64,000 nucleotides of DNA. Origin: an uncultured virus (IMG/VR IMGVR_UViG_3300046796_000566) (Duplodnaviria > Heunggongvirae > Uroviricota > Caudoviricetes). The stretch lies in IMG/VR virus record IMGVR_UViG_3300046796_000566; one strand, 5' to 3'. Under the pieces are notes generated by a model. That model was given only the letters and a program-made list of their open reading frames with translations. It was not told the DNA's origin and searched no databases. Shown here piece by piece: positions 1,399 through 16,371 of this stretch. Position 1 is the stretch's first letter. Each line of letters starts with the position of its first letter. The position numbers were made by a program, and so were the translations under genes.

Positions 1399-1739
1399 TA
1401 GATCTCCTTAATCAATTTGTCTTGCGCGTCCTTCTCCAGTGACTCTTCCGCCAGCTGCCGGAATGGCACGCATTCGCCGGTCCGTATTCGTATTTCCTCG
1501 CACTCATCGCAAACTTGATGATGACATTTGAAGCAAAAACCGCGATCTCGTGTTCGCTTCGGTTCTATTACCACAACACGAATGCAATGAGAACAAGTAT
1601 ATGTGGGTGCTTCGAACAGGCCGGACCCACAACCGGGCGGCAGCTCCGCGTCCCATGTATGAAACTCCGTCAATCCCGGCGATGCCCGGTGATCGAGCAT
1701 GAAATACCCTTCCTTCGACCGCTTGCTATGTACGCTCAT
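1398..1739 (-). CDS. Cys-rich zinc-binding hypothetical protein
   Basis: CSHC, CFKC and CDEC motifs; overlaps both neighbours. Confidence 0.65.
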   Translation of the reverse strand: MSVHSKRSKEGYFMLDHRASPGLTEFHTWDAELPPGCGSGLFEAPTYTCSHCIRVVVIEPKRTRDRGFCFKCHHQVCDECEEIRIRTGECVPFRQLAEESLEKDAQDKLIKEI

Positions 1740-2410
1740 ATTGCGCTCCTTGCCCAGAGAATCGTTTCAAAGAATCCAGACGTCCACAGTACGACCTGCG
1801 ATCCACCCACGCCTGCGAGATTCGATGTTCCACTTGCACTATACGATCCCGATATCAACCTCACCTCGAGGTATTCCATTGCAATCGTTCCTCCGCTGGA
1901 CGGGGAGAATTGAAGTATCGTCTGGTAGTCATGCGTCCCGTTGAGGATGCTGTTTGCCGTCGATGCATAGACAACGCCCAGTATGATTCCGGATCGGGGC
2001 TTGTCCAATGGAGTAACTGCTCCTCCGGTCCATTCTCCTCCGGGACTGGTAACCCACGCGCTCTCGGTTCCAAACCGCTCATCCTGGCTTTGCACTCCAT
2101 AAATCTCCGCGTACACAATTCCAATAGTTGCAGACGGAGTCCCTCCGGTAATGGAGATTGAAGTCAATCCCGGGCGCGATACCAGCGATACCGCCAGGAA
2201 TACCGGAAACTCCTGCGCTGGGCCAAAATCAAATTCATGGGAGGCGCTAAACGCAGTCGAGGATGCCGAGAATGTCGGGCCATTAACCGTACCGGAAGCA
2301 ATCAGCACCATCAGGCTATTCGGACCTGTTGCTGGAATCGTATATGTTCCACTACCCGCCCCGCTCAACGTCACATTCCCGGATGTTCTTTGAACGATTC
2401 GCTGCTGCAT
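1736..2410 (-). CDS. Putative structural or decoration protein, Gly/Ser/Thr-rich
   Basis: 224 aa; translationally coupled; beta-strand-like composition. Confidence 0.6.
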   Translation of the reverse strand: MQQRIVQRTSGNVTLSGAGSGTYTIPATGPNSLMVLIASGTVNGPTFSASSTAFSASHEFDFGPAQEFPVFLAVSLVSRPGLTSISITGGTPSATIGIVYAEIYGVQSQDERFGTESAWVTSPGGEWTGGAVTPLDKPRSGIILGVVYASTANSILNGTHDYQTILQFSPSSGGTIAMEYLEVRLISGSYSASGTSNLAGVGGSQVVLWTSGFFETILWARSAI

Positions 2411-3072
2411 TAGAACACCGACGCCGGGTGCAACGTATCAAAGTTGCGAATTGCGAACGATGTTTGGATCGACCCGTCCTGCGCATTCAGCGTCCACGAT
2501 GTCGTGCCTGTTGCTCCAGGCGATGTGATCACCAAGTCCGCAAACCCGCATGGATTGTTGTTGGCCGTATTCTTCTCCACGGTATATCCAGCCGGAGTTG
2601 CAGTGAATGAACGTGCCGACCCGTCTGCGGTGATGATGGAACAATGAATCGCTTTCGGAGTCAGTGTCGTAATCGATGGGGCGGTACGCGTGGCCGGATC
2701 GGTATTGGCATTGATCGTCGATGACGGCGTCACGTCATAGATCACGCCTTGGTTGGGGTTACTGAATGTCACCGCCACAATCGTCCAGCGTTGCGAGCTT
2801 CCAAGCGTAAATGCATACGTGCTGGGGTCCCCAGCTATGATTCTCCGGCTCCAAATAGTCTGGCGCGAACCCGCGCCTGTTTCGTCCTGCGTGGAATCGA
2901 GCGTGAATGGCGTCGATCCATTATTGTCGGTGACGCTCACGCCATTCAGGTTATTGCTGACAACAATACTCACTAAATCACCGGCTGTTGTTCCTGCCGG
3001 GGCCGATACGCTAACAGCGGTAGACCCGGCGTTGTTGGCGGTCGATGAACTGCGGACAGCGGTATCTGGCAT
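2410..3072 (-). CDS. Putative structural beta-sandwich protein, Thr/Ser-rich
   Basis: Likely start MPDTAV at 3072, coupled to upstream stop; PAGTTAGDL motif typical of phage minor-tail/surface domains. Confidence 0.6.
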   Translation of the reverse strand: MPDTAVRSSSTANNAGSTAVSVSAPAGTTAGDLVSIVVSNNLNGVSVTDNNGSTPFTLDSTQDETGAGSRQTIWSRRIIAGDPSTYAFTLGSSQRWTIVAVTFSNPNQGVIYDVTPSSTINANTDPATRTAPSITTLTPKAIHCSIITADGSARSFTATPAGYTVEKNTANNNPCGFADLVITSPGATGTTSWTLNAQDGSIQTSFAIRNFDTLHPASVF

Positions 3073-3692
3073 TACATCCACCCTGCCGAGTGCAACGTCT
3101 GGTCCGAGGTCACACTGCCTGCTGTCCATGAAGCCCAGCGCGATGTCGCATCGCTGCCGGAAACCAATCCGGGATTGCCGGTCGTGAAAATTCCATCGGT
3201 AAAGTTGAGATCCGTTATCGGCACGCCGTTGACTCGAACGGAAATCGCGGCTCCAACCACCTGGATGTTGACGACATCACCTGCCACGGCGACGGTGGCG
3301 GAAACGGCCAAGTCGGTATTGATTCCAGCGTTGGCGCTGACGATGCGATAGTTGTTGTTCCCGGCATTATTGGGATTGATCCCTACCGCATAACCGCTGG
3401 AGATGTTGGCTCCATCGCCACCAAGCCGAACCGCCAGAAACTGCGCACTGGTGGCGAGGGTATCAAACGTCGCCTGCGCAAATTGATCGTCGGTCCATGT
3501 CTGTCCCACGCGGTGATCGGCGCTTTGCAAACCGCCGCCTCCAGCCTGCGCCTTGCCCGTTGGGGTCGACAGCACATGGTCGAAGTAATTCCCCGAATAG
3601 GCAGAGTTCACCCAGAGGCCGGAACTGTAAGTGACCAGCGCAGTCCCGGCACTGCCGTTGAACGGGTCGGTATCGAGTGTGTTCTGTCCCAT
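3072..3692 (-). CDS. Putative lectin-like (ConA/LamG-type) structural protein
   Basis: 206 aa; beta-rich with VVGAAISVRVNG and TGNPGL motifs. Confidence 0.5.
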   Translation of the reverse strand: MGQNTLDTDPFNGSAGTALVTYSSGLWVNSAYSGNYFDHVLSTPTGKAQAGGGGLQSADHRVGQTWTDDQFAQATFDTLATSAQFLAVRLGGDGANISSGYAVGINPNNAGNNNYRIVSANAGINTDLAVSATVAVAGDVVNIQVVGAAISVRVNGVPITDLNFTDGIFTTGNPGLVSGSDATSRWASWTAGSVTSDQTLHSAGWM

Positions 3693-3958
3693 CAGTGATG
3701 CCGGTAGATGTCTACCGTCCTTCCATGTCGCAAATGCCGAAGAAATTCCTGCCGCAACTTCTCTGCTTCCACCTTGTTGTTTCGATCCCGCATCCGCAGC
3801 TTCACTCTATTCCACGCCAATTCACCATGAGGCCGCAACCAACCAAGAACTTTCATGGCCAGCCACTGTGGATGCGAGAATCCGTAGCGATTGAAATAAA
3901 TCCAGCTCATGCCAATCAGCCACACTCGAAGATTAGTGATTCCCGAGAACATACTCAT
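3692..3958 (-). CDS. Hypothetical basic protein
   Basis: Likely start MSMFSG; fills the gap in the operon. Confidence 0.5.
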   Translation of the reverse strand: MSMFSGITNLRVWLIGMSWIYFNRYGFSHPQWLAMKVLGWLRPHGELAWNRVKLRMRDRNNKVEAEKLRQEFLRHLRHGRTVDIYRHH

Positions 3959-6011
3959 GGACCATCTCCGGAATTTTTGCAAGTGGAACACGGACCGATG
4001 GAGGCGCTCCAACGATCAGGATCAACAGCCATATCAACAATACCTGCCCAAACAGAACCGCTGTCGATGCAGAAGCTCCGCCCTGACCAGCCCCTGCCCC
4101 GTTATAACATCCCGGATCAAAACTGGAAATCACGGTACTGGAATAAGCTCCATCGACTCCACCCGCCGCCTCAAAACACACCTGCGCCGGAGTCTTTCGG
4201 GCATGGCCGCTCAAGTAAGTGCCGCCGGTTACATCCGGACCCATCAACGGCCAGAGTACTCCACCAGGCCACCAGCTCGGCGAGACCGTATACAGCAGCG
4301 ATGCTGGCAGCGTGTGGCTGGAGGGAATCGCATTGGGAAATACCGCATCGCCACTGGGAACGTCTCCATTATCAAAGTGACTGGTGGAGTCAAACGCATC
4401 ATAGTTTCCCCAGATCATCGTGCTCGTACATACCAGCGCGTCCGGCTGTACCACCGATGGCGGGTGAAACGTGCTGTCGGCCCCTGCACTGTTGCTGGAT
4501 CCGGCATAGCCCAGACGAAACGTGACGCTGCTGAAGCGGTCATAGGTTGTGCCATCGCTATAACAGGACTTGTATGCGGTGGCGGAATTCAGGGCATTGC
4601 CGATGAGGTTGTACCAGCGATTATAGCTGTTGAGATCCATGCCGCCTGCGGAGGTGTGGTTTCGGAAGAATGTCAGGAGTGCCGTATTTCCGTGCAGGTT
4701 GTCGGCCCAGAGTTTTCGATATCGATTGCCTTCAACCAGCGACATGCTCGACGCCGGATCGTGGGGCTGGATTCCGCCTTCCTGCTGGTCGTCGTTCACC
4801 CAGTTCTCATAGTTGAACGTGATCACATCCCCGATGGTTCCGATGGTCATCGCCCCGGGAGCCTCGGTATTGTTGAAGATATTGTTTTCAATCAGCGAAG
4901 CAAAGGTTTCCTGAAATACAGCTCCATAGGTCGTTGTCGAGCTGCCTCCGCCCGCAGCCCGATCAAACCAGCTGTCGCGGACCGTCACATGAACACTGTC
5001 GTTGGCAACAAACACAAAGTTCATCGACGGAGATCCGAATCCCGACCCATGGAAAAACGTGTAATAGGGTTTCAGTCCCACGCCTTTCACCCAGCAGTTA
5101 TTGGCGAAAAACATGCCGATCAACGCATCTTGCTGGCTGTGATTTCCGGTCGAATCCACGATCAGGTTTTCCAGTCCGGAGTTCTGGATCAGGTCGCTCG
5201 ACTTCAGCCATCCACACTTGGGATTCAATCCTGCCGCCCACGTTCCGGCGGGATGATCGAGTCCCTCGGCAATCGTGACCTGAGTGCCGCTGACATTGGT
5301 CACCATGGATCGCTGTTCCATCGAGGCTTTCGCGCCATCGCCGGTATCGTAGTAGGTTCCAACCTGAGAGACGTCGGTCCCTGTTCCATTCTTCGCGCTG
5401 AAGAAAAACCCACTATTGGGAAGCCCGGCATCGGCAGCATCGGACTGGTAGCAAACCAGCATGTCTCCCGAAGCCAGCCCGGTTGGAGTGGTGTGCATGT
5501 TAAGTACTGTCGCACCTTGGGTGAACGTACCTGTGGAGCCATTGGTCCCATCCCACACCACGGCATTGCCGCCGGTTCCAACCAGCGGTGGAGCACCATC
5601 GGCCCATGCGGTAAAGCCTCCAACAAAGCTAACCGACACGCCAAAAGCCGCCAGCCAATTCGAGCCCGTATTGCTGGTGAGGTTCAAGATCGTGCTCATG
5701 CCTGCGCCACGCAGGATGACATTGGATTTCATCACCACGGCACCCGCGAAGTTATACGTGGCTGCAGGAAGAACAACCAGCCCTACATTAGAGGAGCTGG
5801 AGGTTCCGCTGCACGTATTGATATCGCTATTCAGGGTGCTTAAGGTAACGCTGGTGAGTTCGGTCACGCAGGTATGGCCCGGGGTCTTGATCGTCGCTCC
5901 AGCCGTCGCCCAATTCGTCGTCGCACGCGCAGGATCGATCAGTCCGGAATAGAGCTGGCCGAATGCCGGTGAAGCCATCAGCATGAATGCGATGACGAAG
6001 ACTCGACGCAT
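3933..6011 (-). CDS. Secreted or membrane-anchored pectate-lyase-like right-handed beta-helix protein
   Basis: N-terminal Sec signal MRRVFVIAFMLMASPAFG; VVLPAATY...KSNVILRGAG first rung; GLENL, NCWVKGV and LIENNIF repeats; C-terminal hydrophobic helix VLFGQVLLIWLLILIVG. Confidence 0.7.
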   Translation of the reverse strand: MRRVFVIAFMLMASPAFGQLYSGLIDPARATTNWATAGATIKTPGHTCVTELTSVTLSTLNSDINTCSGTSSSSNVGLVVLPAATYNFAGAVVMKSNVILRGAGMSTILNLTSNTGSNWLAAFGVSVSFVGGFTAWADGAPPLVGTGGNAVVWDGTNGSTGTFTQGATVLNMHTTPTGLASGDMLVCYQSDAADAGLPNSGFFFSAKNGTGTDVSQVGTYYDTGDGAKASMEQRSMVTNVSGTQVTIAEGLDHPAGTWAAGLNPKCGWLKSSDLIQNSGLENLIVDSTGNHSQQDALIGMFFANNCWVKGVGLKPYYTFFHGSGFGSPSMNFVFVANDSVHVTVRDSWFDRAAGGGSSTTTYGAVFQETFASLIENNIFNNTEAPGAMTIGTIGDVITFNYENWVNDDQQEGGIQPHDPASSMSLVEGNRYRKLWADNLHGNTALLTFFRNHTSAGGMDLNSYNRWYNLIGNALNSATAYKSCYSDGTTYDRFSSVTFRLGYAGSSNSAGADSTFHPPSVVQPDALVCTSTMIWGNYDAFDSTSHFDNGDVPSGDAVFPNAIPSSHTLPASLLYTVSPSWWPGGVLWPLMGPDVTGGTYLSGHARKTPAQVCFEAAGGVDGAYSSTVISSFDPGCYNGAGAGQGGASASTAVLFGQVLLIWLLILIVGAPPSVRVPLAKIPEMVHEYVLGNH

Positions 6012-7948
6012 TACGACTCCTTCATCGTCATCCGTGGCATGGTCTGGCCGGACGCCTTTCGTCCAGTGGGGGATACCTGCATCCCAAGTCCCATGTTCTG
6101 TTCGGCCATCAACCGGTCGGTGATGGTATTGGCTCCCGCTGGAGGAGTTCCCACGTTCGGGATTCCCAGGATGTCCATCAGCGTCCAGTGGTCGATCAGT
6201 CCGGCACGCGACAAGGACAGGTACAACATCTTCCTCTCGGTCTCGGACGATGCCAGCAGGGAATTCGGCGCGATGTGGAAGCTGAACTGGCGCAGGAACT
6301 CCCGGCTGCGTTCATAACGTGGCAGTGGCCCGCGCTCCAGCGCTTCCGAAGTGGGATTGCCTTCCTTATCAAAATCCTTTGGATCGACAAAGTCCGGGAT
6401 CATCGATTTCGGATCGAAGTCGAAGTCTTCCTGGGTTGCTCCTTCGGCTCCCAAAATCGTCATGCGTCGTGGCAGCGTATAGAACTGTGCGAAGTTGTAG
6501 GCCATCATCAGCGCAAATTCCCGCATGAACACTTCAATCACTCGAGACCTCATGCGCCAGCACAGGGACATCGACTCGATCATGGTCTCCATGGAGTCGG
6601 ACGCCGGTAGCTGGTTGAGCTTCATCATCGCCGACAGGTCCTGGGATCCGGACAGTTCCTTGATTTTCTCCTGATAGAATTCCACGCCTTTCCAGAAGTC
6701 CTGCGGCAATGGCTCCGGATAGACGAACTCAATGCCGCCCTTACCTGCGGTGGGATTGATGCGGATCTTCTTGCCTGCACGTCGAGTATCGATCCGGTCG
6801 ATCATGTGCTGGGCAATGGCATTCTTGTCGGCCACCACGTCCGGTCGCGCCAGCCGTTCGCACCAGTCGTCATACACGCGCAACAGCTTGTTCAGCGATT
6901 TGTTCGGCGACAACACGTCCCACAGCGGAGCCTTGCCCAGATACGACCACGGCACCGGATCCATCGTCAGCTTCGGATAGGGGAACATCCCATGCCACCA
7001 CGGAGACGGACCGTCATAGAACGGTTCAGGGACTCCAGAGGAAAACACGATCATGCGCTTGCGAGGGTAAAGCCGGTCTCCCGGCTGGACCATGTAGGAC
7101 CAGTTGTTCTGCGGCTTGCCTTCCTTGTCGAACGAGCCGATCTGGACCGCGCTGGTTTTTTCGTTGATGGAGTCGTCATCCACGTAACAGGTGAACACGT
7201 CTGTGGTTGGAACACGCGGAATGTCGCGCTGGGCCTTTTCACCAAACAGACGCTGTTTGAAAGGACTGTCCCCAAACTTCGCCATCAGTTGTCCAACGCG
7301 AGTATTCCGTAGCGATGAAGCCACCACCGATCCATCACGGTCGGGCTGGACGAACCTCACCAGGTCTGGCCGCATGAAGACGTGTTCACAGAGATATCTT
7401 ACGTGGTTGGTCGACCGGGCTTTACGGGAGATGACTCCGTAGCAATCTTGAATAGATGGCGATGTCGATGGCCGTATGGGCAATACATCACGAGGATCCC
7501 AGGCCTCGGCTCTGAAGTCCTCAATGTTTGAATCCCAGTAAGGCTCCAGATAAGACGAGCCACAGCTATTCGTATACTGCACCGCGTACATGAAGGACAT
7601 GTCCATCTGGCGTTGGGACCAGACGTGAGTGGAGAGCTTTCCGTAGATGTTGCAGTGATCTTCATAACGCTTGTTGTAGGTTCGGTATTCCCAGAACGGC
7701 TTGACATCGGTTAGGCCCGAGGCCATGTCGAAATGTGTCTTGGCCGTCAGGTTGACTTCGGTACCGGACAGTGAGCTCGAGCGAAAGTCCGTCGACTGCG
7801 ACATGATCGCGTTGATGGCTTCGTCGCACTTGTCATAGCCGATCTGGGCCTTCAAAAAGCCATCGCCTTCTTCCACCGCTTCCTTGCACCAGCCGATGAC
7901 ACGGTATCCGTAGTCTTCGGTACTGGGTGGAATTTTGCTGTCGGCCAT
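6011..7948 (-). CDS. Portal protein
   Basis: 645 aa; downstream of terminase; WDPRDVLP, YDGPSPWWHGMFPY and LNKL..YDD patterns typical of P22-like portals. Confidence 0.85.
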   Translation of the reverse strand: MADSKIPPSTEDYGYRVIGWCKEAVEEGDGFLKAQIGYDKCDEAINAIMSQSTDFRSSSLSGTEVNLTAKTHFDMASGLTDVKPFWEYRTYNKRYEDHCNIYGKLSTHVWSQRQMDMSFMYAVQYTNSCGSSYLEPYWDSNIEDFRAEAWDPRDVLPIRPSTSPSIQDCYGVISRKARSTNHVRYLCEHVFMRPDLVRFVQPDRDGSVVASSLRNTRVGQLMAKFGDSPFKQRLFGEKAQRDIPRVPTTDVFTCYVDDDSINEKTSAVQIGSFDKEGKPQNNWSYMVQPGDRLYPRKRMIVFSSGVPEPFYDGPSPWWHGMFPYPKLTMDPVPWSYLGKAPLWDVLSPNKSLNKLLRVYDDWCERLARPDVVADKNAIAQHMIDRIDTRRAGKKIRINPTAGKGGIEFVYPEPLPQDFWKGVEFYQEKIKELSGSQDLSAMMKLNQLPASDSMETMIESMSLCWRMRSRVIEVFMREFALMMAYNFAQFYTLPRRMTILGAEGATQEDFDFDPKSMIPDFVDPKDFDKEGNPTSEALERGPLPRYERSREFLRQFSFHIAPNSLLASSETERKMLYLSLSRAGLIDHWTLMDILGIPNVGTPPAGANTITDRLMAEQNMGLGMQVSPTGRKASGQTMPRMTMKES

Positions 7949-8316
7949 TATTGATTCTCCGGTCCTCGCCCATTGCGATCATAGTTCAATCGTTCGTTGA
8001 TGACGTTGTGTGAACGCTCAAAGGCCATCACCTGCCGTGGGCTCATCACCACCTTTTCATACCCTCTCCGACGAAGTCGGTCGGGTACAGGGGCATCGTT
8101 TCGCCCAGGGTACTGGACAGCTCCACCTTCCAGTTGGGAAACGTATACGACACAAGCCTCTGAGGGATGGCACATAGGATCGGTCCCTCTGGAAACGGTC
8201 CATAGCCGCTCCCATTTACCGCTACACCCTCGATGCGTTCGTCCTTCAAGATCGGACCATTGGTCATAAAGCCTCTTTTCGCACTTCGAACAAATAAGGT
8301 CGACGTTCACAGCCAT
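7948..8316 (-). CDS. Zinc-ribbon hypothetical protein (FmdB-like position before portal)
   Basis: CSKC...HRGC motif; coupled to portal start. Confidence 0.6.
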   Translation of the reverse strand: MAVNVDLICSKCEKRLYDQWSDLEGRTHRGCSGKWERLWTVSRGTDPMCHPSEACVVYVSQLEGGAVQYPGRNDAPVPDRLRRRGYEKVVMSPRQVMAFERSHNVINERLNYDRNGRGPENQ

Positions 8317-8714
8317 TAGCGCAGGCCTGCAAATTCTTCAAGAAGGTTCTTGATGGTTTTTCGAAGGAAGGCATCGAAGTCCATTCCGATGCAGCGGGAC
8401 TTGAGACGGTCGAGCAGGTACTGGGACAGCGGGATTTCACATTCGTTGACGGAAATGGAAACAGCGCGGGTCACGATGCGGACCACGTCGGAGCCGGTGG
8501 TGATATTTTTACCCACGGCTTGCTCGATGGCCTGACGCTCGAGATCGGTGAGGATCACGGGCTTTGCCGAGTCCAACCCGGCATAGCGCGTCAGGGTCTC
8601 TGACATCACGGCCTCGATGGTCTTGCCTGTGCGTGCGGCGGTGATTTCGTAAGACTCGCGGATGGGATCGGAAAGGTCTGCTCTTAAAAGGATTGTGGTT
8701 GCGGTGACTGCCAT
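8316..8714 (-). CDS. Hypothetical protein, possibly DNA-binding; apparently leaderless
   Basis: 132 aa; extended -10 TGcTACGGT lies 7 nt upstream of ATG; no SD. Confidence 0.65.
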   Translation of the reverse strand: MAVTATTILLRADLSDPIRESYEITAARTGKTIEAVMSETLTRYAGLDSAKPVILTDLERQAIEQAVGKNITTGSDVVRIVTRAVSISVNECEIPLSQYLLDRLKSRCIGMDFDAFLRKTIKNLLEEFAGLR

Positions 8715-8749
8715 GTCGCGTACCGTAGCACACGATCAGGCTCAAATCC

Positions 8750-8790
8750 AAAAGCAAACGGAGGACCCGGGTGAGACAGGCCCTCCGTTT
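8750..8790 (-). terminator. Intrinsic terminator
   Basis: AAACGGAGGGCC / GGUCCUCCGUUU stem followed by GCUUUU. Confidence 0.75.
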
Positions 8791-8812
8791 TCAGAAAGGA
8801 GATAACAGAAAC
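8750..8812 (-). ncRNA. Candidate anti-RBS small RNA (~63 nt)
   Basis: GUUUCUGUUAUCUCCUUUCUGA followed by a terminator hairpin; complementary to early-gene RBS motifs; own sigma70-like promoter. Confidence 0.6.
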
Positions 8813-8819
8813 AGATCCA

Positions 8820-8848
8820 AATATCGTCCCTCCCGGACGACTTGTCAA
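8820..8848 (-). promoter_or_regulatory. Sigma70-like promoter for candidate sRNA
   Basis: TTGACA-N17-GATATT. Confidence 0.6.
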
Positions 8849-8852
8849 CCCA

Positions 8853-9614
8853 TTAACGCCACTTCTTGTCGGAGGCCTTCTTCGGCATAGCCACCTTTGG
8901 CGGCTGTGGGACCTGGCCTGCGGGAGGGTTATTGTCCACCTTCACATGCATCCCCGCAGAAGCTCGGATCAGCACGTCATCTTTGGTAGCATCCACCGTG
9001 AACGACGACCTTGATCCACGGACGGCACTCGCCCCGATCTTGTTGGACATCATCGCCATGGCTGCATAGGTCTGGCCTGCCATTCCCTTGGAATATGTCG
9101 CAGTCGACCCCACGCCCACTCCGATTCCATGGGCATCGTCCCAAGTCTCTGGCTGCGTTCCTAGATAGGTGAACGTCCAGTCGCCTTCGTTCAGTTTGGC
9201 GTCAATCGCCTTGTTCAGTGAATCCTTGGTCCATTCCCGGCTCGCGTTTTCCTGCCCGTCGGTCACGATCACGCACAGAATTTTCTCCGCATCATGACGA
9301 TCCTTGCTGATCGCATCGATGGTCATACCCACCGCATCATAGAGCGCGGTGCCACCGCGAGGACCATGGTTCGCCAATTCCACGCCCGTCACTTCTGTCA
9401 GCGGTTTTCCAACTATCGGGGCTTCAATCCGCGTATCAAATGTCGTCAGCGAGAACCGGTATTCGATCCCATCCTCAATCTCGCCTTTCTTCAATCCTTC
9501 AATGAACACCTTGTAGCCATTCAAAGTTTCCATCCAGCCATCAGCCATGGATCCAGATCGGTCCTGAATGAATGCCACCAATACCTTCTTCTTGTCTGCC
9601 ACTGTTACCTCCAT
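8853..9614 (-). CDS. von Willebrand factor A (vWA) domain protein
   Basis: MIDAS motif DRSGS, GGTALYDA, IVTDGQENAS; true start may be GTG 9602 after GGAGG. Confidence 0.9.
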   Translation of the reverse strand: MEVTVADKKKVLVAFIQDRSGSMADGWMETLNGYKVFIEGLKKGEIEDGIEYRFSLTTFDTRIEAPIVGKPLTEVTGVELANHGPRGGTALYDAVGMTIDAISKDRHDAEKILCVIVTDGQENASREWTKDSLNKAIDAKLNEGDWTFTYLGTQPETWDDAHGIGVGVGSTATYSKGMAGQTYAAMAMMSNKIGASAVRGSRSSFTVDATKDDVLIRASAGMHVKVDNNPPAGQVPQPPKVAMPKKASDKKWR

Positions 9615-9793
9615 CGATAAACGGTTTGTCGTTCGATACCAAGATAGGCCAGCACTTTCGGCCCGATATCGCGCTTACCGGCGTAGATGTCCGATAGATA
9701 GACGGGGGAAATTCCGACCGTCGATGCGAATGAGTTTTGTGTGCTGGTCCCCTGGCGCTTCTTTAACTCGCGAAGGACCCTCTTCTTGTCCAT
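9605..9793 (-). CDS. XRE-family helix-turn-helix regulator, leaderless
   Basis: TQNSFASTVGISPVYLSDIYAGKR. Confidence 0.85.
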   Translation of the reverse strand: MDKKRVLRELKKRQGTSTQNSFASTVGISPVYLSDIYAGKRDIGPKVLAYLGIERQTVYRWR

Positions 9794-9799
9794 GGAGAG

Positions 9800-9828
9800 A
9801 TATTAGCGGATACGCGAATATGCGTCAA
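9800..9828 (-). promoter_or_regulatory. Sigma70 promoter for leaderless HTH-vWA unit
   Basis: TTGACG-N17-TAATAT, 6 nt before ATG 9793. Confidence 0.7.
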
Positions 9829-10712
9829 GCATATTCCTGCGAGGCCTCGTCACTCAGCTCTTCCCATCGGCGCTCGTAAGCTTCCTGTAGCGCGTCGGCG
9901 GAAATATCGGTGGCCTGCCACTCGACGGCAGGGCCGGTTTCGACTCGGGTTTCTCTGGTTTCAATACTAAACGTCCAGTTGTGGCCTGCCCAGATACTAA
10001 GTAGACAGGCTGTGGCGCGGTCGTCATGCCCTCCCGAAGCCGCCGCTCCTCGCAATCGAACCAGGTCCATCTCGCAGTCGGCGAATTCTTCCACAAGATA
10101 TGGGGACTTGAAGAGGAGCTGACGTCTGTGAATGCACCGTAGCCCACGGGTCCAGAGGTGCTGCATGGACTGCTTTGAAGAGTACCAGCCGTAATCGAAC
10201 TTGGAAGTTTCAGCGGGTGCGCCGGTATCGAGAAACTGCCATCGGTACATGTTTGTATAACCATACTTCTCCATCATGGTCCGCTGCGTGGGGCCGCCCG
10301 GACCAGGGTAGACTTCAACTATTGCGAGGGCTTGCCCATCTTCATTGCGCCCGCCATAAAGGCGTCCAAGCGTATTCGCAACTGTGGCGAGATCGTAAGG
10401 GTCGATGGGTGCCGCATATTCTGCGACCTGAACGTCAGGTGTGAACCCGGGATGCCCAGGCTCACCAGTTCCCAGCCTAATAACTTCAACAGCTCCATTG
10501 TCGATGTCGGAATCGTCTTCTGTGCGGTTGTAACGAGACCATCCGGTACGCCCCTGAGTAGCGTCCACACCCATGACGTATCGAGCTCTTGGATTTGGTG
10601 GTTCAAAGAGCCAGATGATTCCTCGTGGATCGCCATCGTAAACCTCCTCGGTCGAACGAATGATGCGGTGCTTGCCGCTGACCCGGTACTCTGCCGGGGG
10701 AGCAATGCTCAT
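9825..10712 (-). CDS. Terminase large subunit, C-terminal RNase H-like nuclease domain (separate gene)
   Basis: YVMGVDATQG, ALAIVEVY, GYTNMYR, GHDDRATA. Confidence 0.85.
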   Translation of the reverse strand: MSIAPPAEYRVSGKHRIIRSTEEVYDGDPRGIIWLFEPPNPRARYVMGVDATQGRTGWSRYNRTEDDSDIDNGAVEVIRLGTGEPGHPGFTPDVQVAEYAAPIDPYDLATVANTLGRLYGGRNEDGQALAIVEVYPGPGGPTQRTMMEKYGYTNMYRWQFLDTGAPAETSKFDYGWYSSKQSMQHLWTRGLRCIHRRQLLFKSPYLVEEFADCEMDLVRLRGAAASGGHDDRATACLLSIWAGHNWTFSIETRETRVETGPAVEWQATDISADALQEAYERRWEELSDEASQEYA

Positions 10713-10906
10713 GTGCGTTCGAAATCGTTATGTCGGCGTATTTGGCCTGTCGCCCTGTCATCCCGGAATGCTTGCAGCTGAACCCTTTGTTTCCGTATTC
10801 GGAAATTCAGTTTATGAACAAGCCCGCAATCACAGCACTGCATCTTAAAATTCTTTCGGACCGGTTGAATCCATTCCCCAGCCTTTGTTTTGTTGTACCA
10901 GCTCAT
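10709..10906 (-). CDS. Small Cys-containing protein inserted between the terminase halves
   Basis: 65 aa; CCDCGLVH; ATGA overlaps on both sides. Confidence 0.7.
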   Translation of the reverse strand: MSWYNKTKAGEWIQPVRKNFKMQCCDCGLVHKLNFRIRKQRVQLQAFRDDRATGQIRRHNDFERT

Positions 10907-12138
10907 AGTCCCTCGTATTCGTAAGCCACTCCGCCGCCGGAGGTGGTTCGCATCCAGTCCATTGTCGCCGCGTTGATGGCGGAAGTCGATGTGTGCTGGA
11001 AGCTCTGTTCGGGCGTGATGGAATAGTTGCTCAGGAACAGATTTAAGGAGTTGTTTTCCAGCGCTTCATTGTAGCTGGTTTCCCACCAGTGCATCTGTTC
11101 CCGGTCGAGCGTGACCTGCTTGCCAACGAATTCCTTGCTGGTGTTGAAGACTTTCCATGCCATCTCTTTCGTCTGCTCATTCGGGATCCAGGATTCCTCC
11201 GGATGACGGCGGTACTTTTTTGGCTCGGCGTAGAATGGGATATACAAGTACGCCCACCTCGGAATTTTTCCATGTCGTACGCGCTCGCTCCACTTGAACC
11301 ACCAGTTCTTCCTTCCAAGCGGTGTTGTCTCCTGAAGACTGAATGTGTATGGGTGCTGGGGCAAAGTCGGGAAGAAATCGATCTCCAGCATCTTCGGGTA
11401 GGGCCATGAACTCACCTCCGTATTGTGGTTGACGTCGAACTGGCGTCCGGTTCCGAGACCGGACTGTTGTTTGGATTGCTGGTAAAGGATCTTCGATCCC
11501 AGGCTCTCGAGCAGAATATGTTCGCCCTTCTTGTCGTAACCTCCGCCAGCGGATCCCCAACCGGCAGGCTGCAGGAAGAACGGCAGGTTGTCGAGGATCA
11601 ACTTGTCCCGGTCGTAGAGTTCGAGGATTTTATCGTCGTCGACGGATGCGGCCATACACCGGGTGTAAGGCCAGCCGACCATGCGGTGCATACAGATGGC
11701 GCGGGCCACCATCGTATGACCCAGCTGTCGGCCTCCCTTGTTGTCACAAACGAGAATCCCATCACAGGGATAACCACGTTCGAAGTAATCAATGTTTTTC
11801 TCCTCGAGTTTCGCAATCAGGTCGAGCAGGATCTTCTGCGCTTCCCACGGACGAAACACGCCAATACCGCCGCCTTCCACGCCGTCCTTGATGATAAGCA
11901 TGTAGCGCAGGGCGTAGTGGAAGTCCTGCTGGAACAGAATCCGTTCGTTGCGGATGAACGCGGCATGTTCCTTTTTTGCTATCGATCCGTCCGGAGAGAA
12001 AAGCTTGCCGTCTTTTTTGAGCGTGGTGAGATAGGCCGCCAGCTCCCGGGATTGATCCGGCTCGTAGCGATGGAGTTGGATATCGAGCTTGGCTTCGACC
12101 GCTTCGCAGTGCTTAGCCGTTACTGTCCTTGAATACAC
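10903..12138 (-). CDS. Terminase large subunit, N-terminal ATPase domain
   Basis: PWEAQ Q-motif; KGGRQLGHT Walker A variant; NHNTEVSSW Walker B region; ETTPLG motif III; YSITPEQSF. Confidence 0.85.
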   Translation of the reverse strand: MYSRTVTAKHCEAVEAKLDIQLHRYEPDQSRELAAYLTTLKKDGKLFSPDGSIAKKEHAAFIRNERILFQQDFHYALRYMLIIKDGVEGGGIGVFRPWEAQKILLDLIAKLEEKNIDYFERGYPCDGILVCDNKGGRQLGHTMVARAICMHRMVGWPYTRCMAASVDDDKILELYDRDKLILDNLPFFLQPAGWGSAGGGYDKKGEHILLESLGSKILYQQSKQQSGLGTGRQFDVNHNTEVSSWPYPKMLEIDFFPTLPQHPYTFSLQETTPLGRKNWWFKWSERVRHGKIPRWAYLYIPFYAEPKKYRRHPEESWIPNEQTKEMAWKVFNTSKEFVGKQVTLDREQMHWWETSYNEALENNSLNLFLSNYSITPEQSFQHTSTSAINAATMDWMRTTSGGGVAYEYEGL

Positions 12139-12400
12139 TTAGGCTCCCGGATTCTTCCGCTTCCCTGGCTTCGCGCTCTTCGAGTCGGCGGTACGCAGCG
12201 ATCTGCTCGCGGGCGTAATCTTCTTCCTCATCCACGTAGCCGATGCTCTCGGGCTCGGATACCACCGGAGGCTTGATCGTGATGTTGTAGCCACGGGCGG
12301 AAAGGTCCGATTCCATGCAAAATGCAATCCGCTCCAGGAGCGCCGAGATGGTCTTCAGTTCCCGGACCACGGGCTTTAACCGCATCATGTTGACGTTCAT
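12113..12400 (-). CDS. Hypothetical protein
   Basis: 95 aa, coupled within the packaging operon. Confidence 0.6.
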   Translation of the reverse strand: MNVNMMRLKPVVRELKTISALLERIAFCMESDLSARGYNITIKPPVVSEPESIGYVDEEEDYAREQIAAYRRLEEREAREAEESGSLSVFKDSNG

Positions 12401-13023
12401 TCCGTATCCTTTCGCTCGCCCATCGTGATGGTCTGGGTCAGCCGGAGCATGTCTTCCATCGAGGAATTCAGTCCCGCCGCGCCCTTGGATGCAAAGTTCT
12501 GCTGGATGGCCACCATCGGCCCGCGCTGGGAGGTCAGGCCCATGGATTCAAACACAAGGTCGCGGGCATGCTTGTCGCCCACCTGCCGGATATTTCCGGT
12601 ACCGTTGCACTGCGGACAGTTCTTCGGGTCCTTACTATCCAGCACGTAAATGGACTTATCGCCTTCGCAGCGCGGGCAGATGATGTCTTTGGATTCGGCA
12701 TCGACCGAGACATCTTCCATGATCTTGGGCAGGTGATTGGACATGGCAAACAGACCGATACTGCGCGACCCGTCGCGATAGAGGGAGTTGAGTTCATGGA
12801 GTGTGATTCCAAACTTCTCCATGATCTTGGCATAGGTCAGGTGGGCGTACTCGGCAGAGCGCAGGGCGGCGGCGAAGTTCATGTACTTATCGTTGCCCTC
12901 GAGAAACATATCCAGTTTCTCCAGGTCCACGGTTTCAAAGAACCGCCGAACGGGCAGGTCGTGATTGGGACGGGTCACCAGGTCTCGGTTATGCCGATCC
13001 TTCTTTTTTACTGGACTGGCCAT
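12397..13023 (-). CDS. Putative terminase small subunit with DnaJ-type zinc finger
   Basis: CPRCEGDK and CPQCNGTG; upstream of TerL; VAIQQNF C-terminal motif; start MASPVKK. Confidence 0.55.
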   Translation of the reverse strand: MASPVKKKDRHNRDLVTRPNHDLPVRRFFETVDLEKLDMFLEGNDKYMNFAAALRSAEYAHLTYAKIMEKFGITLHELNSLYRDGSRSIGLFAMSNHLPKIMEDVSVDAESKDIICPRCEGDKSIYVLDSKDPKNCPQCNGTGNIRQVGDKHARDLVFESMGLTSQRGPMVAIQQNFASKGAAGLNSSMEDMLRLTQTITMGERKDTE

Positions 13024-13507
13024 ATCGTTCCACGGGCGTTGTCGTGTCGGTCTCCACGTCGTAGACCTCGCGGCTTCGCTCATACCTTTCATGCCGGGCC
13101 GGTAGTGGCGGCTCGACGACGTATTCGATCTTCGGACCCGACGGCTTGGGGTCCACCAACACCCACATCACCGATGCCGTGTCCCGGCGTGGAACATACG
13201 GCACCGCGAGCATCCCGATAAAGTTATGAACATCCCCATTGAAGATTTTGTCCGCGATGGCGAGGTTGGATGGATGCGGCCCGATTCCGGACTGCTTCTC
13301 TGCGGTGGTCCATGGAGCCCAGTATGCCCAGCGGCCTGCCGGGTTTCCGTGAAGCACGGCAACGGCAATCCAGTGCCGCATCACACCGTCGGACCCGACG
13401 CCTTCATGGATCTGCCCCGCGAACGGATCCTCGGGAAGGTCTCCCAGTGGAGACCGGTCCACGGCATCCTGCGCCAGCTCCCACTCATGAATCTTAGGGT
13501 AGTCCAT
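12989..13507 (-). CDS. Hypothetical protein
   Basis: Likely start MDYPK. Confidence 0.55.
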   Translation of the reverse strand: MDYPKIHEWELAQDAVDRSPLGDLPEDPFAGQIHEGVGSDGVMRHWIAVAVLHGNPAGRWAYWAPWTTAEKQSGIGPHPSNLAIADKIFNGDVHNFIGMLAVPYVPRRDTASVMWVLVDPKPSGPKIEYVVEPPLPARHERYERSREVYDVETDTTTPVERYGQSSKKEGSA

Positions 13508-13868
13508 CCTCGTCTTCCTCCTTGGCCGGTGCCGCAAACCCGCCATGCTTCAGCTCCGCTTCCTTCAGCGGAATCCATGGCCCTTCCGGTGGCGGATGAT
13601 GCTCGGCAATGATCCTACTACAGGAATCGCACAGCACCTTGTGAATGCGGCCCCCGCGCCAGATTCCTCCATCAACCGGAATCAGGTCCGGGGGAGGCGA
13701 TAACGGGCCGCCCAGCGAACTGAACAATACCATACCCATGGTCCATGTTCTCGAACAGGCCGTATTCACGCACTTCACGCGATAGCGGAGCGGGCGCAGT
13801 GTGTGCTTGTTGATGGTCAAACAGGCCGGGCACTGCCAGAACACCTTGCCACGGATTTGCATGAACAT
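13494..13868 (-). CDS. Zinc-finger hypothetical protein
   Basis: CPAC, CVNTAC and CDSC; start overlaps the HNH stop (TGATG). Confidence 0.6.
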   Translation of the reverse strand: MFMQIRGKVFWQCPACLTINKHTLRPLRYRVKCVNTACSRTWTMGMVLFSSLGGPLSPPPDLIPVDGGIWRGGRIHKVLCDSCSRIIAEHHPPPEGPWIPLKEAELKHGGFAAPAKEEDEDGLP

Positions 13869-14233
13869 CAGCGCACCGCCTTGTCCAGCGATACCCACTT
13901 GTTTCGAAGCTTGTCCAATGTCAGGTCCTGGTTCTCCGGAAGGGAATGGTCCATCTCGAGAGGTCCCTTTTTGTGGTTGCAGGCCCAACATGCCAGCACG
14001 AAGTTTTCTTTTTGTTTGTCGGATCCACCAGCAACCAGCGAGATGACGTGATCGAGCGTACAGTCGTCGTACTTCAACTTCTTCTGGCAATAAGCGCAGG
14101 TGCCGTTGTCTCGCCAGAAGATGCGTTGGCGTAATCTTTTTTTCTTGCGCCGGGCTCGATGGACTTTCGGAACAGGCAGGCTTAAATGGTGGGCCTCAAT
14201 CATTCCAGATGTGAAGAAACCAAACATACTCAC
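13868..14233 (-). CDS. HNH endonuclease
   Basis: CAYC...TLDHVISLVAGG...NFVLACWACNHKKG. Confidence 0.9.
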   Translation of the reverse strand: MSMFGFFTSGMIEAHHLSLPVPKVHRARRKKKRLRQRIFWRDNGTCAYCQKKLKYDDCTLDHVISLVAGGSDKQKENFVLACWACNHKKGPLEMDHSLPENQDLTLDKLRNKWVSLDKAVR

Positions 14234-14245
14234 CTCAATGTATCA

Positions 14246-14317
14246 CGGAGCCGACGGGGATCGAACCCGCTTCACCCGGTAGACAGCCGGGTCGCTATGC
14301 CAATGGCGCACGACTCC
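14246..14317 (-). tRNA. tRNA-Asp(GTC), U37
   Basis: Cloverleaf; CCCGG-CTGTCTA-CCGGG. Confidence 0.9.
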
Positions 14318-14321
14318 AAAT

Positions 14322-14398
14322 TGGAAGCCCCGGAGAGACTCGAACTCTCAACTAATCCGTTCGAAGCGGAGTACTCTTGTCCATTGAGTTACGGGGCC
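14322..14398 (-). tRNA. tRNA-Arg(TCG), CCA encoded
   Basis: Anticodon loop CTTCGAA. Confidence 0.9.
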
Positions 14399-14402
14399 AA
14401 AA

Positions 14403-14491
14403 TGCAGTGGGAGGGATTCGAACCCCCAATGTCCGGGAATGCCGGATCAAGCTCTACAGGCTCGCGCATTCAACCATTTTGCTACCACTGC
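14403..14491 (-). tRNA. tRNA-Tyr(GTA), G37
   Basis: Loop CTGTAGA; long variable arm. Confidence 0.9.
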
Positions 14492-14493
14492 GA

Positions 14494-14574
14494 TAGGCTT
14501 GGAGGGACTTGAACCCCCACCTCCGAAGAGACTGGTTTCTAAGACCAGCGCGGCTCCCATTACGCCACAAGCCC
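14494..14574 (-). tRNA. tRNA-Leu(TAG), A37
   Basis: Loop CTTAGAA; variable arm present. Confidence 0.9.
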
Positions 14575-14578
14575 AAAA

Positions 14579-14670
14579 AGGAAGTGGAGAGATTCGAACT
14601 CCCAGTACGCACTTTCGAACGTACGCCAGTTTTCGAGACTGGTGACATTGTCCATTTCGTCCACACTTCC
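14579..14670 (-). tRNA. tRNA-Ser(CGA)
   Basis: Loop CTCGAAA; long variable arm. Confidence 0.9.
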
Positions 14671-14673
14671 AAA

Positions 14674-14745
14674 AGGTGCCGACAGGATTCGAGCCTGCAT
14701 GTAGACGATCTGCAATCGTCCGCCTCTCCATTCAGCCACGGCACC
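14674..14745 (-). tRNA. tRNA-Cys(GCA), G37, C54
   Basis: Loop TTGCAGA; U73; T-loop CTCGAAT. Confidence 0.85.
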
Positions 14746-14750
14746 AGAAA

Positions 14751-14834
14751 CGGAAGCGGCAGGACTCGAACCTGCACGACCTTTCGGTCGCTCCCTTAGC
14801 GGGGGAGTGCAATGGCCATTTCTGCCACGCTTCC
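14751..14834 (-). tRNA. tRNA-Ser(GCT), C33
   Basis: CTCCC-CCGCTAA-GGGAG; long variable arm; G73. Confidence 0.85.
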
Positions 14835-14838
14835 AAAG

Positions 14839-14911
14839 TATCCCCGGCAGGAGTTGAACCTGCAAATCATCCGTTTTGAGCGGAGTGCCTATGCCGTTCG
14901 GCTACGGGGAC
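14839..14911 (-). tRNA. tRNA-Leu(CAA) with short variable loop
   Basis: Loop CTCAAAA; 5-nt variable region. Confidence 0.85.
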
Positions 14912-14916
14912 GTAAA

Positions 14917-14990
14917 CTCCGAGGCCAGGACTCGAACCTGGATATCGTCTGGTTAACAGCCAGCTGCCGTGCCAATTTAGCTACCTCGGA
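14917..14990 (-). tRNA. tRNA-Asn(GTT)
   Basis: Loop CTGTTAA; G73. Confidence 0.9.
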
Positions 14991-14991
14991 A

Positions 14992-15065
14992 TCCCCATGG
15001 GTGGAATTGAACCACCTACTTCCTCTTTATCAGAGAGGCACTCTAGACCGGTGAGTTACACGGGG
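14992..15065 (-). tRNA. tRNA-Ile(GAT)
   Basis: Loop CTGATAA. Confidence 0.9.
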
Positions 15066-15244
15066 CTGTCTTCATCAAGCTTTCGTCCGCATTCTCCACA
15101 ATGCGTTCGTTCATACCAACGCTTCTGTTCATCCGCTTTCGGCTCCGAGCCATGCTTGTAATGACCGCCGGTATGCCCTTGTTCTCCCTGACAATTCATC
15201 CAGCCATCCTCATGGATTCGCGGCAAAATAAACGGACACTGCAT
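15056..15244 (-). CDS. Small Cys/His protein within tRNA array
   Basis: 62 aa filling an inter-tRNA gap; HCGECG. Confidence 0.55.
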   Translation of the reverse strand: MQCPFILPRIHEDGWMNCQGEQGHTGGHYKHGSEPKADEQKRWYERTHCGECGRKLDEDSPV

Positions 15245-15245
15245 A

Positions 15246-15319
15246 TACTCCTGATGGGATTCGAACCCACAGCCCTTGGATTAAAAGTCCATCGCACTTG
15301 CCAGTTGTGCTTCAGGAGT
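15246..15319 (-). tRNA. tRNA-Lys(TTT), A8
   Basis: Loop CTTTTAA. Confidence 0.9.
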
Positions 15320-15323
15320 CGAA

Positions 15324-15396
15324 AAGGAGCGACAGGATTCGAACCTGTATTGATCTGCTTCAAAGGCAGATGCCTTAGCCGTTAGACGACGCTCCT
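15324..15396 (-). tRNA. tRNA-Gln(TTG)
   Basis: Loop CTTTGAA. Confidence 0.9.
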
Positions 15397-15589
15397 AGAT
15401 TTCCTGGGGGATGTTCGCCATGTTCTCAATGGCGGCCACCAGGGCTTTCTTGACCTCGGCAATCGTGATGACGTTGCCACAGGTCTTACAAAAAATATCA
15501 TGAACCGGATCGATGATGATCTCCCCATCACACAATGCACACTGGGCCTCGAGCTCGATCTTCACATTCGCAGTCAGTTTCTTCCCCAT
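15395..15589 (-). CDS. Small zinc-ribbon protein within tRNA array
   Basis: Start MGKKL; CALC and CKTC. Confidence 0.6.
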   Translation of the reverse strand: MGKKLTANVKIELEAQCALCDGEIIIDPVHDIFCKTCGNVITIAEVKKALVAAIENMANIPQEI

Positions 15590-15591
15590 AA

Positions 15592-15662
15592 TATCCCGGG
15601 CGGGTACTGACCCCGCGTTCACAGCTTGAGGGGCTGGTGAATTTCCATTATTCGACCGGGAC
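15592..15662 (-). tRNA. tRNA-Glu(CTC), C33, degenerate T-loop (possibly pseudogene)
   Basis: Loop CCCTCAA; T-loop GTCAGTA. Confidence 0.65.
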
Positions 15663-15665
15663 GTA

Positions 15666-15738
15666 CTGCGGCGGAAGGACTCGAACCTTCAACATCTGGT
15701 TTCAGAGACCAGCGTTCCGCCAGTTGAACTACACCGCA
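15666..15738 (-). tRNA. tRNA-Gln(CTG)
   Basis: Loop CTCTGAA. Confidence 0.9.
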
Positions 15739-15810
15739 TAGCCTCGGCGGGGATTGAACCCGCTTTCGATGATTGAAAGTCATCTGAACTAACCAATGTT
15801 CGACGAGGCC
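15739..15810 (-). tRNA. tRNA-Glu(TTC)
   Basis: Loop CTTTCAA. Confidence 0.9.
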
Positions 15811-15816
15811 AGAAAA

Positions 15817-15886
15817 CATGGGTGGAGGGACTTGAACCCCCATCGGCTGTTTTGGAGACAGCGTGCCTGCCATTGGCGACACCCAT
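15817..15886 (-). tRNA. tRNA-Trp(CCA)
   Basis: Loop CTCCAAA; G73. Confidence 0.9.
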
Positions 15887-15890
15887 AAAG

Positions 15891-15961
15891 AGCGGGACAC
15901 CGGAATCGAACCGGTTTCTCCAGTTTGGAAGACTGGGGTTCAGCCAATAAACCAGTCCCGC
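15891..15961 (-). tRNA. tRNA-Gly(TCC)
   Basis: Loop CTTCCAA; GCG start; U73. Confidence 0.9.
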
Positions 15962-15964
15962 GTA

Positions 15965-16037
15965 TGCACCTGAGAGGATTTGAACCTCCTATCTTCAGAT
16001 TAAGAGTCTGCTGCACTGCCAATCGTGCTTCAGGTGC
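15965..16037 (-). tRNA. tRNA-Lys(CTT), A8
   Basis: Loop CTCTTAA. Confidence 0.9.
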
Positions 16038-16206: not shown

Positions 16207-16214
16207 AAACAAAG

Positions 16215-16289: not shown

Positions 16290-16295
16290 GAACAA

Positions 16296-16367: not shown

Positions 16368-16371
16368 AAAG

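Follow-up and report, generated by a model that had tools for sequence, protein, structure and literature searches.

A promoter-tail-terminator unit in a novel tailed phage may encode a small RNA complementary to an extended early ribosome-binding site

Introduction

RNAs that block ribosome-binding sites (RBSs) by antisense pairing are already known. The c4 RNA of phages P1 and P7 and the sar RNA of P22, which are 68-77 nt long, pair around the RBS of a single phage mRNA and block its translation (PMC12197685, in its account of these RNAs). In Staphylococcus aureus, a C/U-rich anti-Shine-Dalgarno (anti-SD) stretch in the 3' untranslated region (UTR) of the icaR mRNA pairs with the SD sequence of the same mRNA and blocks initiation (PMC3868564, in the part on icaR). 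The closest anatomy in the literature is that of the Cluster K mycobacteriophages, where an extended RBS called SAS precedes non-structural genes and one copy per genome, in the opposite orientation, lies off gene starts (PMC3203893). In its sections on SAS, the same paper leaves the binding partner as 'RNA or protein' and proposes no RNA gene, and the function has been open since 2011. Here, we describe a minus-strand unit at 8848-8746 of a 64-kb DNA stretch from an uncultured virus (IMG/VR record IMGVR_UViG_3300046796_000566), referred to as the window, which represents a novel tailed phage. The unit consists of a promoter-like site, a free CU-rich tail and an intrinsic terminator, and what is new compared to the known RBS-blocking RNAs is the match to a whole class of sites.

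Phage gene timing is usually ascribed to transcription, i.e., to sigma factors, antiterminators and repressors. In lambda, for example, PR'-tR' produces a late leader with the 6S RNA, and read-through occurs via an antiterminator. Short RNAs can also be derived from 3' UTRs, as in the case of DapZ, where a promoter at the end of the upstream gene is combined with a short seed and the parental terminator. Lambdoid phages further carry morons, which are promoter-gene-terminator insertions between late genes; we know of no classical moron described with a second promoter and an anti-RBS RNA at its 3' end. A limited literature search found no published description of an RNA such as the one proposed here. 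A first, sequence-only reading of the window had proposed that the unit encodes one trans-acting small RNA (sRNA), which silences a regulon of early genes.

Results and discussion

Anatomy of the unit

The promoter-like site begins 4 nt past the stop codon (8853-8855) of the gene g253 and is followed by the tail and the terminator, see Table 1. These three parts had been named in the sequence-only reading as TTGACA-N17-GATATT, about 22 unpaired nucleotides and a terminator, and all of them are present where they had been placed. Together with the promoter of the next gene, g132, they use up the whole 138-nt spacer between g253 and g132. The stop codon of g253 is separated from the promoter-like site by 4 nt and this site from the tail by 7 nt; the terminator and the g132 promoter follow, and the ATG of g132 lies 41 nt beyond the terminator.

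When the 66-nt RNA (8813-8748) is folded, the tail is left unpaired in both the minimum free energy (MFE) and the centroid structure. The MFE is -24.2 kcal/mol (z = -4.1), a value that was equalled by none of 200 shuffles. The terminator hairpin stands at the top of the terminator-like list and has the longest stem among 27 sites in positions 1-20000 of the window. An alternative hairpin between CUCCUUU and AAACGGAG, with which the terminator could have formed a switch, is absent from the MFE and centroid structures. A minus-strand open reading frame (ORF) at 8684-8848, which starts at the TTG of the -35 element and runs through the hairpin, was judged spurious. The minus-strand unit has an intrinsic terminator and no credible ORF, as a stand-alone sRNA gene would.

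The promoter-like site at 8848 may well be a real promoter, judging from the company it keeps. TTGACA occurs 29 times in the window, and six of these sites have a -10 element with at least 4/6 matches at 16-18 nt spacing. All six are located outside the ORF calls, while none of the 17 TTGACA sites inside ORFs has such an element (Fisher p=0.002; binomial 8.5e-4), so this promoter class is non-random. The other five sites lie directly before early genes (22681, 28800, 29299 and 28788) or the tRNA array (18414), and the class is therefore largely real. GATATT of the 8848 site is the weakest -10 element among the six.

The tail mirrors the early ribosome-binding motif

The tail has TCAGAAAGGAGATAACAGAAAC as its plus-strand complement, and this is a copy of the early RBS motif AGGAGA[TAC]A.C that has no start codon. 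On this strand the motif is found 11 times in the window, once as the copy at 8797 and 10 times at 20.2-29.4 kb, where each site is followed by an ATG and an ORF. The looser form AGGAGA[TAC]A occurs 15 times, and 13 of these are followed by an ATG and an ORF. Downstream of the copy at 8797, no ATG, GTG or TTG opens an ORF of at least 25 amino acids, and the copy is, as had been claimed, not an RBS itself. A plus-strand reading from a rare start codon was also considered; the sole candidate, ATC at 8815, lies 13 nt past GGAG and opens 13 codons, which is implausible.

A weight matrix was built from 21 early RBSs, with the copy excluded and two of the 23 early genes, which lack GGAG, dropped. 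The copy at 8791-8812 scores 19.9 bits and ranks 4 of ~128,000 positions. The top 12 sites are the copy and 11 of the training RBSs; among the remaining sites that lack a start codon, the best reaches 15.2 bits. By its score, the sequence on the plus strand thus belongs fully to the early RBS family. It sits among minus-strand genes, and local transcription would read it as antisense. Since it points into the 3' end of g253 with ~40 nt of room, we infer that it has no plausible past as a gene start.

Two further observations concern the sites themselves. The 15.2-bit site without a start codon is TCCGAAAGGAGGAAACCG at 17107-17124 on the minus strand, between tRNA genes. In the plus-strand region at 19.7-30.2 kb two early RBS styles coexist, GGAGA[TAC]A[AC]C on ~13 genes and the canonical GGAGGTGA, e.g. 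at 22722, 24139, 28847 and 30935, and the start codon is ATG in all 23 called early genes.

Predicted targets

The main predicted targets are found 11-21 kb from the unit and on the opposite strand. The five initiation regions that the sequence-only reading had listed, with matches from 11/11 to 16/16, were all recovered at the same positions (Table 1). For the 22-nt tail, the mean duplex energy is -15.8 kcal/mol over 23 early plus-strand initiation regions, compared to -10.6 to -13.6 in the other classes.

As a control, the core CTCCTTT was kept fixed and its flanks were shuffled (n=300). The mean of the early regions is reached by 2 of the 300 shuffled tails, and the early-minus-late difference by 4. 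No such effect is seen for later plus-strand genes (0.39) or late genes (0.10). As so few controls match the observed early mean, the predicted pairing beyond the SD core is specific to the early block. It had also been claimed that late-gene RBSs match little beyond the SD core. This is correct on average, the exceptions being 8853-9602, 44439-44684 and 63500-63616, which are among the best 11 of 102 regions.

In our own reading of the sequences, the U residues of the tail would pair with the A residues of GGAGAUAAC and, by forming G-U pairs, could also accept the G residues found in the second RBS class, GGAGGUGA. An example that would use this tolerance is the initiation region at 28847, which scores -18.4.

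Two side observations touch these targets. The early plus-strand block ends at 25304-25342 (+) in a terminator whose stem has 17 bp, directly 3' of 24995-25273, the gene predicted as the best target. Further downstream, 36770-37045 on the plus strand encodes a 91-amino-acid RNA-binding protein of the RRM type (Pfam RRM_1 E=4e-14; NCBIfam Rbp regulator). The sequence upstream of this gene, TTTCAGAAAGGTGAG, agrees with the RBS copy in 14/15 positions of its left half and is the 6th of 102 predicted targets. The RNA could have the RRM protein as a partner or act on its gene as a target.

Table 1. Positions of the unit, its predicted targets and the neighbouring features in the 64-kb window.
Feature	Position	Strand	Evidence or remark
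Promoter-like site TTGACA-N17-GATATT	8848-8820 (TTGACA 8848-8843; GATATT 8825-8820)	-	10/12 to sigma-70 consensus
CU-rich tail, 22 nt, GUUUCUGUUAUCUCCUUUCUGA, proposed seed	8812-8791	-	single-stranded in predicted fold
Intrinsic terminator, 14-bp stem and 7-nt loop at 8790-8756, then GCTTTTGGAT	8746-8790	-	common to cassette mRNA and short RNA
Best predicted trans target, RBS and ATG of 92-aa early gene	24978-24997	+	16/16 match (24978-24993); -25.5 and -26.0 kcal/mol
Predicted target, RBS and ATG of 137-aa early gene	24359-24377	+	16/17 match (24359-24375); duplex energies
Predicted target, RBS and ATG of DUF7873 gene	29356-29370	+	13/13 match (29356-29368)
Predicted target, RBS and ATG of DUF932 gene	22948-22966	+	13/14 match (22948-22961)
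Predicted target, RBS and ATG of 33-aa ORF	20203-20219	+	11/11 match (20203-20213)
Perfect inverted repeat TCGTCC-N5-GGACGA, inside promoter spacer, near small helix-turn-helix gene	8824-8840		sole window copy at <=1 mismatch
Cassette promoter-like site TTGACG-N17-TAATAT	9828-9800	-	consensus match; g295 stop codon inside -35
HTH62, 62-aa helix-turn-helix, first cassette gene, without SD	9605-9793	-	Pfam HTH_3 E=3.4e-5; PADLOC HTH_VI and control-protein models
g253, vWA-like, 253 aa	8853-9602	-	likely start GTG 9602 (ATG at 9614); phrog_7371 E=6.6e-38; weak cobaltochelatase-type match
g132, without SD	8316-8714	-
Probable own promoter of g132: extended -10 TGcTACGGT, 7 nt, ATG	8712-8730	-	layout recurs in closest relatives
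Portal gene	6011-7948	-	matches in phage collection limited to two Tunturiibacter phages, 24-26% identity
aa, amino acids.

The unit as the last part of an inserted cassette

Related loci were collected using the portal protein, which gave 32 loci (one IMG/VR contig and 31 metagenome contigs) with 39-74% identity. They share the gene order g411, g295, g132, g122, portal, and g295 runs directly into g132 in 8 of them (L001, L013, L015, L016, L017, L020, L029 and L030). In the window, HTH62 and g253 are located between g295 and g132, two conserved genes of the packaging region. As both are missing from the 32 loci, the window carries an insertion at about 9828-8746 on the minus strand. This cassette contains HTH62, g253 and, at its 3' end, the promoter-tail-terminator unit. 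The sequence-only reading had overlooked this position at the end of an inserted cassette, as well as the RBS of g253 as co-best target and the separate promoter of g132 past the terminator.

The g295/g132 junction is a hotspot for insertions, because four relatives carry other DNA there (2.6 kb in L003, ~550 nt in L008, and other genes in L007 and L010), in each case ending in a hairpin before g132. Homology between the window and L003 starts only at the U-tract of the terminator (GTTTGCTT), and the promoter, tail and hairpin have therefore arrived with the cassette.

With a promoter-like site at its start and the terminator hairpin at 8790-8756, both of which are consensus matches only, the cassette appears from its sequence to be moron-like, and as in lambdoid morons it is inserted between genes that are adjacent in 8 relatives. 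Its -10 element ends only 6 nt before the ATG of HTH62, which is therefore probably leaderless. The inverted repeat in the spacer of the 8848 promoter may be an operator, or it may form a small hairpin in a read-through RNA. That it belongs to a set of operators was considered and rejected, the window containing no second copy at <=1 mismatch. PADLOC gave no match for g253.

The gene downstream, g132, has what looks like a promoter for a leaderless mRNA. The layout TGnTAnnnT, 7 nt, ATG, without an SD sequence, is found in the window, L003 (~3005-3029), L023 and L027, and L001 has the variant CATAAT-N6-ATG. In the more distant relatives L013, L015, L016 and L017, TTGACA-N17-TAnnnn and an SD sequence are instead found just upstream of g132. 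With a probable promoter of its own past the terminator, conserved in the closest relatives, g132 is not attenuated by that hairpin. A similar leaderless layout (TATACT, 9 nt, ATG) is seen at the gene 28548-28751.

The searches for relatives of the individual genes returned little. No relatives of g253 or g132 were found in viral contigs, and in species genomes g253 gave one match of 25% identity, which is useless. The DUF7873 early gene likewise has no relatives in viral contigs. The exact 16-mer of the motif has 40 matches in viral contigs, none of them homologous and most of them in coding contexts. Upstream of the cassette, g411 and g295 may be a split large terminase, for which no family match was found in support.

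Gene layout of the window

The small plus-strand ORFs, including the DUF932, DUF7873 and GP88-family genes, form a block at 19.7-30.2 kb, and the genes for an ERF recombinase, a glycosyltransferase and a methyltransferase come after it. Head and tail genes are located on the minus strand at 44-63 kb. A single minus-strand array at 14.2-18.3 kb holds 32 tRNA genes. Off this array and on the opposite strand, ARAGORN reports a tRNA at 30443-30517 (+) with an undetermined anticodon ('tc' at position 36), which Rfam scores as tRNA at 49.6 bits. At gathering thresholds, tRNAs are all that Rfam finds in the window.

The phage collection contains no record near-identical to the window. The window stretch was found in 24 public runs, which are soil or rhizosphere DNA, with no RNA run among them. 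Four of the runs were compared and differ at 7 variable places in 2001 bases; none of these falls within 8715-8852, where ~0.5 would be expected, and the comparison is hence uninformative for the unit.

Comparison with described systems

The unit resembles c4 (Rfam RF01695) and sar in that it is complementary to phage RBS regions up to the start codons, with duplexes to -26 kcal/mol. However, c4 and sar act on a single target, ant, in the immunity region of temperate phages, while the linear 5' tail of the unit matches about 10-20 early initiation regions. Furthermore, c4 presents its pairing bases in loops and not in a linear tail, and it shares a transcript with its target, icd-ant lying downstream of it in an immunity operon. 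Scans with Pfam and PHROGs recognised no ant-like gene in the window, the targets are on the other strand and lysogeny is not evident; the same scans of the ORFs recognised neither an integrase nor a repressor. As the Rfam covariance model is not matched, the unit is not a member of the c4 family.

With the SAS of Cluster K the unit shares a motif that is longer than the SD sequence and lies a few bases before the starts of non-structural genes, and also a lone copy, read as antisense, off gene starts. The motif differs (GGGATAGGAGCCC in Cluster K), as do the host and the presentation, which is a loop in Cluster K and a tail in the window. In Adephagia (JF704105), 17 SAS copies are in sense orientation and one is antisense. 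The latter lies in a non-coding gap of 430 nt, where a 20-bp hairpin (z = -6.1) presents it in its 10-nt loop, at 9655-9720 of our locus L075, corresponding to ~58,654-58,719 of the record. This hairpin stretch occurs in 137 Cluster K phage records. As an analogy, the parallel is suggestive but no proof.

Two bacterial systems share single features with the unit. As in icaR, the 3' end of an mRNA, here that of the cassette, is complementary to an RBS, here that of g253; icaR differs in being a bacterial gene with a long 3' UTR, without a separate promoter and with a single target. The sRNAs of the DapZ type are Hfq-dependent, enterobacterial and have conserved seeds, while the unit is not conserved.

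A model for an anti-RBS RNA

We tentatively suggest, with doubt slightly outweighing confidence, that the unit encodes an anti-RBS RNA, either as an sRNA or as a 3' UTR. A primary transcript of 63-66 nt from a sigma-70-type promoter, or alternatively the 3' end of the HTH62-g253 mRNA, would carry the 22 nt of the tail single-stranded ahead of the terminator hairpin. In mRNAs that have the extended RBS AGAAAGGAGA[TAC]AAC, the tail would then pair with the SD sequence and the spacer as far as the start codon. Such mRNAs would be those of g253 itself and of the small early genes on the plus strand at 19.7-30.2 kb, and G-U pairs would extend the reach of the tail to the second RBS class. Pairing would block binding of the 30S subunit and lower translation. 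The leaderless genes, i.e., HTH62, g132 and 28548-28751, would escape. The synthesis of the RNA, its pairing in vivo, repression and a role in timing are what we infer beyond the anatomy, the predicted accessibility, the complementarity and the early bias described above. An early-to-late switch or a control of latency, as had been proposed in the sequence-only reading, would be pure conjecture.

Several observations weigh against this suggestion, and they concern the promoter, the complementarity and the conservation. Promoter-like matches are not enriched in positions 1-20 kb of the window (8, compared to 10.2 +/- 2.8 in shuffles), and the -10 element GATATT lacks the first T of the consensus, and the promoter thus counts for little as evidence. 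If the promoter is constitutive, the RNA is made alongside its targets, and a timing switch does not follow. An Rfam cmscan of 8600-9000, on both strands and at E<=10, gave HgcE alone (E=4), far below threshold. The set of 102 ORFs used for the duplex energies comes from our own crude caller based on codon usage and SD sequences, and some of the ORFs are doubtful.

In a pseudo-seed test, for which every real RBS was turned into its antisense, six real RBSs come ahead of the copy, whose rank is 7 of 68. The complementarity is thus not discriminating, as any member of the family mirrors the family, and regulon-wide complementarity is not specific evidence. By chance, up to ~0.13 sites of 19.9 bits would be expected per window (estimated as 2^-19.9 x 128,000), a value that leaves room for a chance origin. 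The unit is not conserved, HTH62 and g253 having a homologue in 0/32 related loci, and no antisense-oriented copy of the motif of at least 15.3 bits is present in 157.7 kb of DNA from the relatives. Of 9 Cluster K phages sampled, 6 have an anti-SAS loop; Keshu and SirPhilip have other loops, and in Ekdilam the SAS is unchanged (16 sites) while the loop has lost one base, which gives no support from co-variation. What stands of one sRNA silencing an early regulon is the stand-alone anatomy and the early-biased pairing; the rank of 7/68 and the absence of the cassette from the related loci count against it.

Alternative explanations

The alternative that survives best, although we consider it unlikely, is that the RBS copy on the plus strand is functionless, having been left behind by recombination at the hotspot or having arisen as a chance CU-rich run. 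The hairpin would merely end the transcription of the cassette, and the TTGACA would be irrelevant or of minor importance. The insertion hotspot, at which four relatives carry other DNA, speaks for this reading. As the cassette is found in no relative it may be recent, and a dead site might not yet have decayed. In L023, the RBS of a divergent gene upstream of g132 shows that starts on the opposite strand do occur at this place, and the pseudo-seed rank, by which the copy behaves like any other family member, and the chance estimate also speak for this reading. However, a rightward gene start at 8812-8816 would run antisense into g253, and there is no simple rearrangement by which an RBS would come to lie between a terminator and a convergent gene's 3' end. 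Identity to other RBSs ends at the edges of the motif, the flanks of 24978-24993 being unrelated, which argues against a recent duplication. A functionless copy would also require that its score, its orientation behind a promoter of a non-random class and its exact abutment to the terminator all coincide.

An improbable alternative is that the main action of the tail is in cis or on its own operon, where it would be an anti-SD sequence in the 3' UTR that pairs with the RBS of g253 on the same or sister mRNAs, and that the match to the early genes merely reflects a shared RBS style. The RBS of g253, GGAGGTAACAG followed by TG, belongs to the extended family (13.8 bits) and can pair with the tail over 11 nt, one of the pairs being G-U. 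For a 26-nt tail, the g253 initiation region is the second-best target, with -25.8 kcal/mol compared to -26.0 for the best (mean -14.4, sd 4.2, ~100 regions), and because it is co-best the tail could act on its own operon. The pairing spans GGAGGUAACAG to the GTG start, and when flanks are included the duplex extends to ~44 nt (-34.2 kcal/mol). RBS and anti-RBS would then travel in one cassette, and icaR offers a precedent for such an arrangement (PMC3868564, in the part on its 3' UTR). Nevertheless, the long duplex is formed in part by the 5' arm of the terminator, longer query segments give equal or better scores at other regions, and g253 is one of several near-equal targets. The promoter would also be left unexplained. 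The copy was considered as an inverted duplicate of the g253 RBS as well, and this was rejected, since the local alignment score is 13, compared to 13-17 for other family members.

Finally, it is very improbable that the 8848 promoter serves the structural operon (g132, g122, portal onward), with the short RNA as a terminated leader of the lambda PR'-tR'/6S type, an antiterminator that would allow read-through, and an incidental CU stretch: a promoter and a strong terminator do lie directly upstream of these genes, and four relatives do have TTGACA-N17-TAnnnn just before g132, but the conserved extended -10, 7 nt and ATG past the terminator give g132 its own start point, the promoter, tail and hairpin belong to the cassette and not to the ancestral g132 leader, no alternative antiterminator fold is present, and the Pfam and PHROGs scans of the ORFs, with no dedicated search for such a gene, recognised no Q-like gene.

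Implications

This case alone cannot settle the matter, since the unit is not conserved; what it contributes is a simple anatomy of promoter, 22-nt tail and terminator. With the phages of Mycobacterium smegmatis, it also suggests a tractable system for tests. A wider speculation, which we regard as rather improbable, is that the cassette is a mobile translation-control module. A leaderless helix-turn-helix gene, a vWA-like gene and an anti-RBS RNA would together shut down the SD-dependent early regulon of the phage itself or of an incoming relative. The leaderless genes, i.e., HTH62, 28548-28751 and g132 at the head of the structural operon, would be spared, and the programme would be switched by the mode of initiation and not by transcription. 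Together with the antisense-SAS hairpin of Cluster K, the unit would then represent one widespread and undescribed class of RNAs that mirror a phage-private RBS code.

If an anti-RBS RNA is indeed made from the unit, one small RNA that reads a phage-private extension of the SD sequence would be a post-transcriptional master switch for the early block. It would also explain why some phages keep uniform and over-long ribosome-binding sites.

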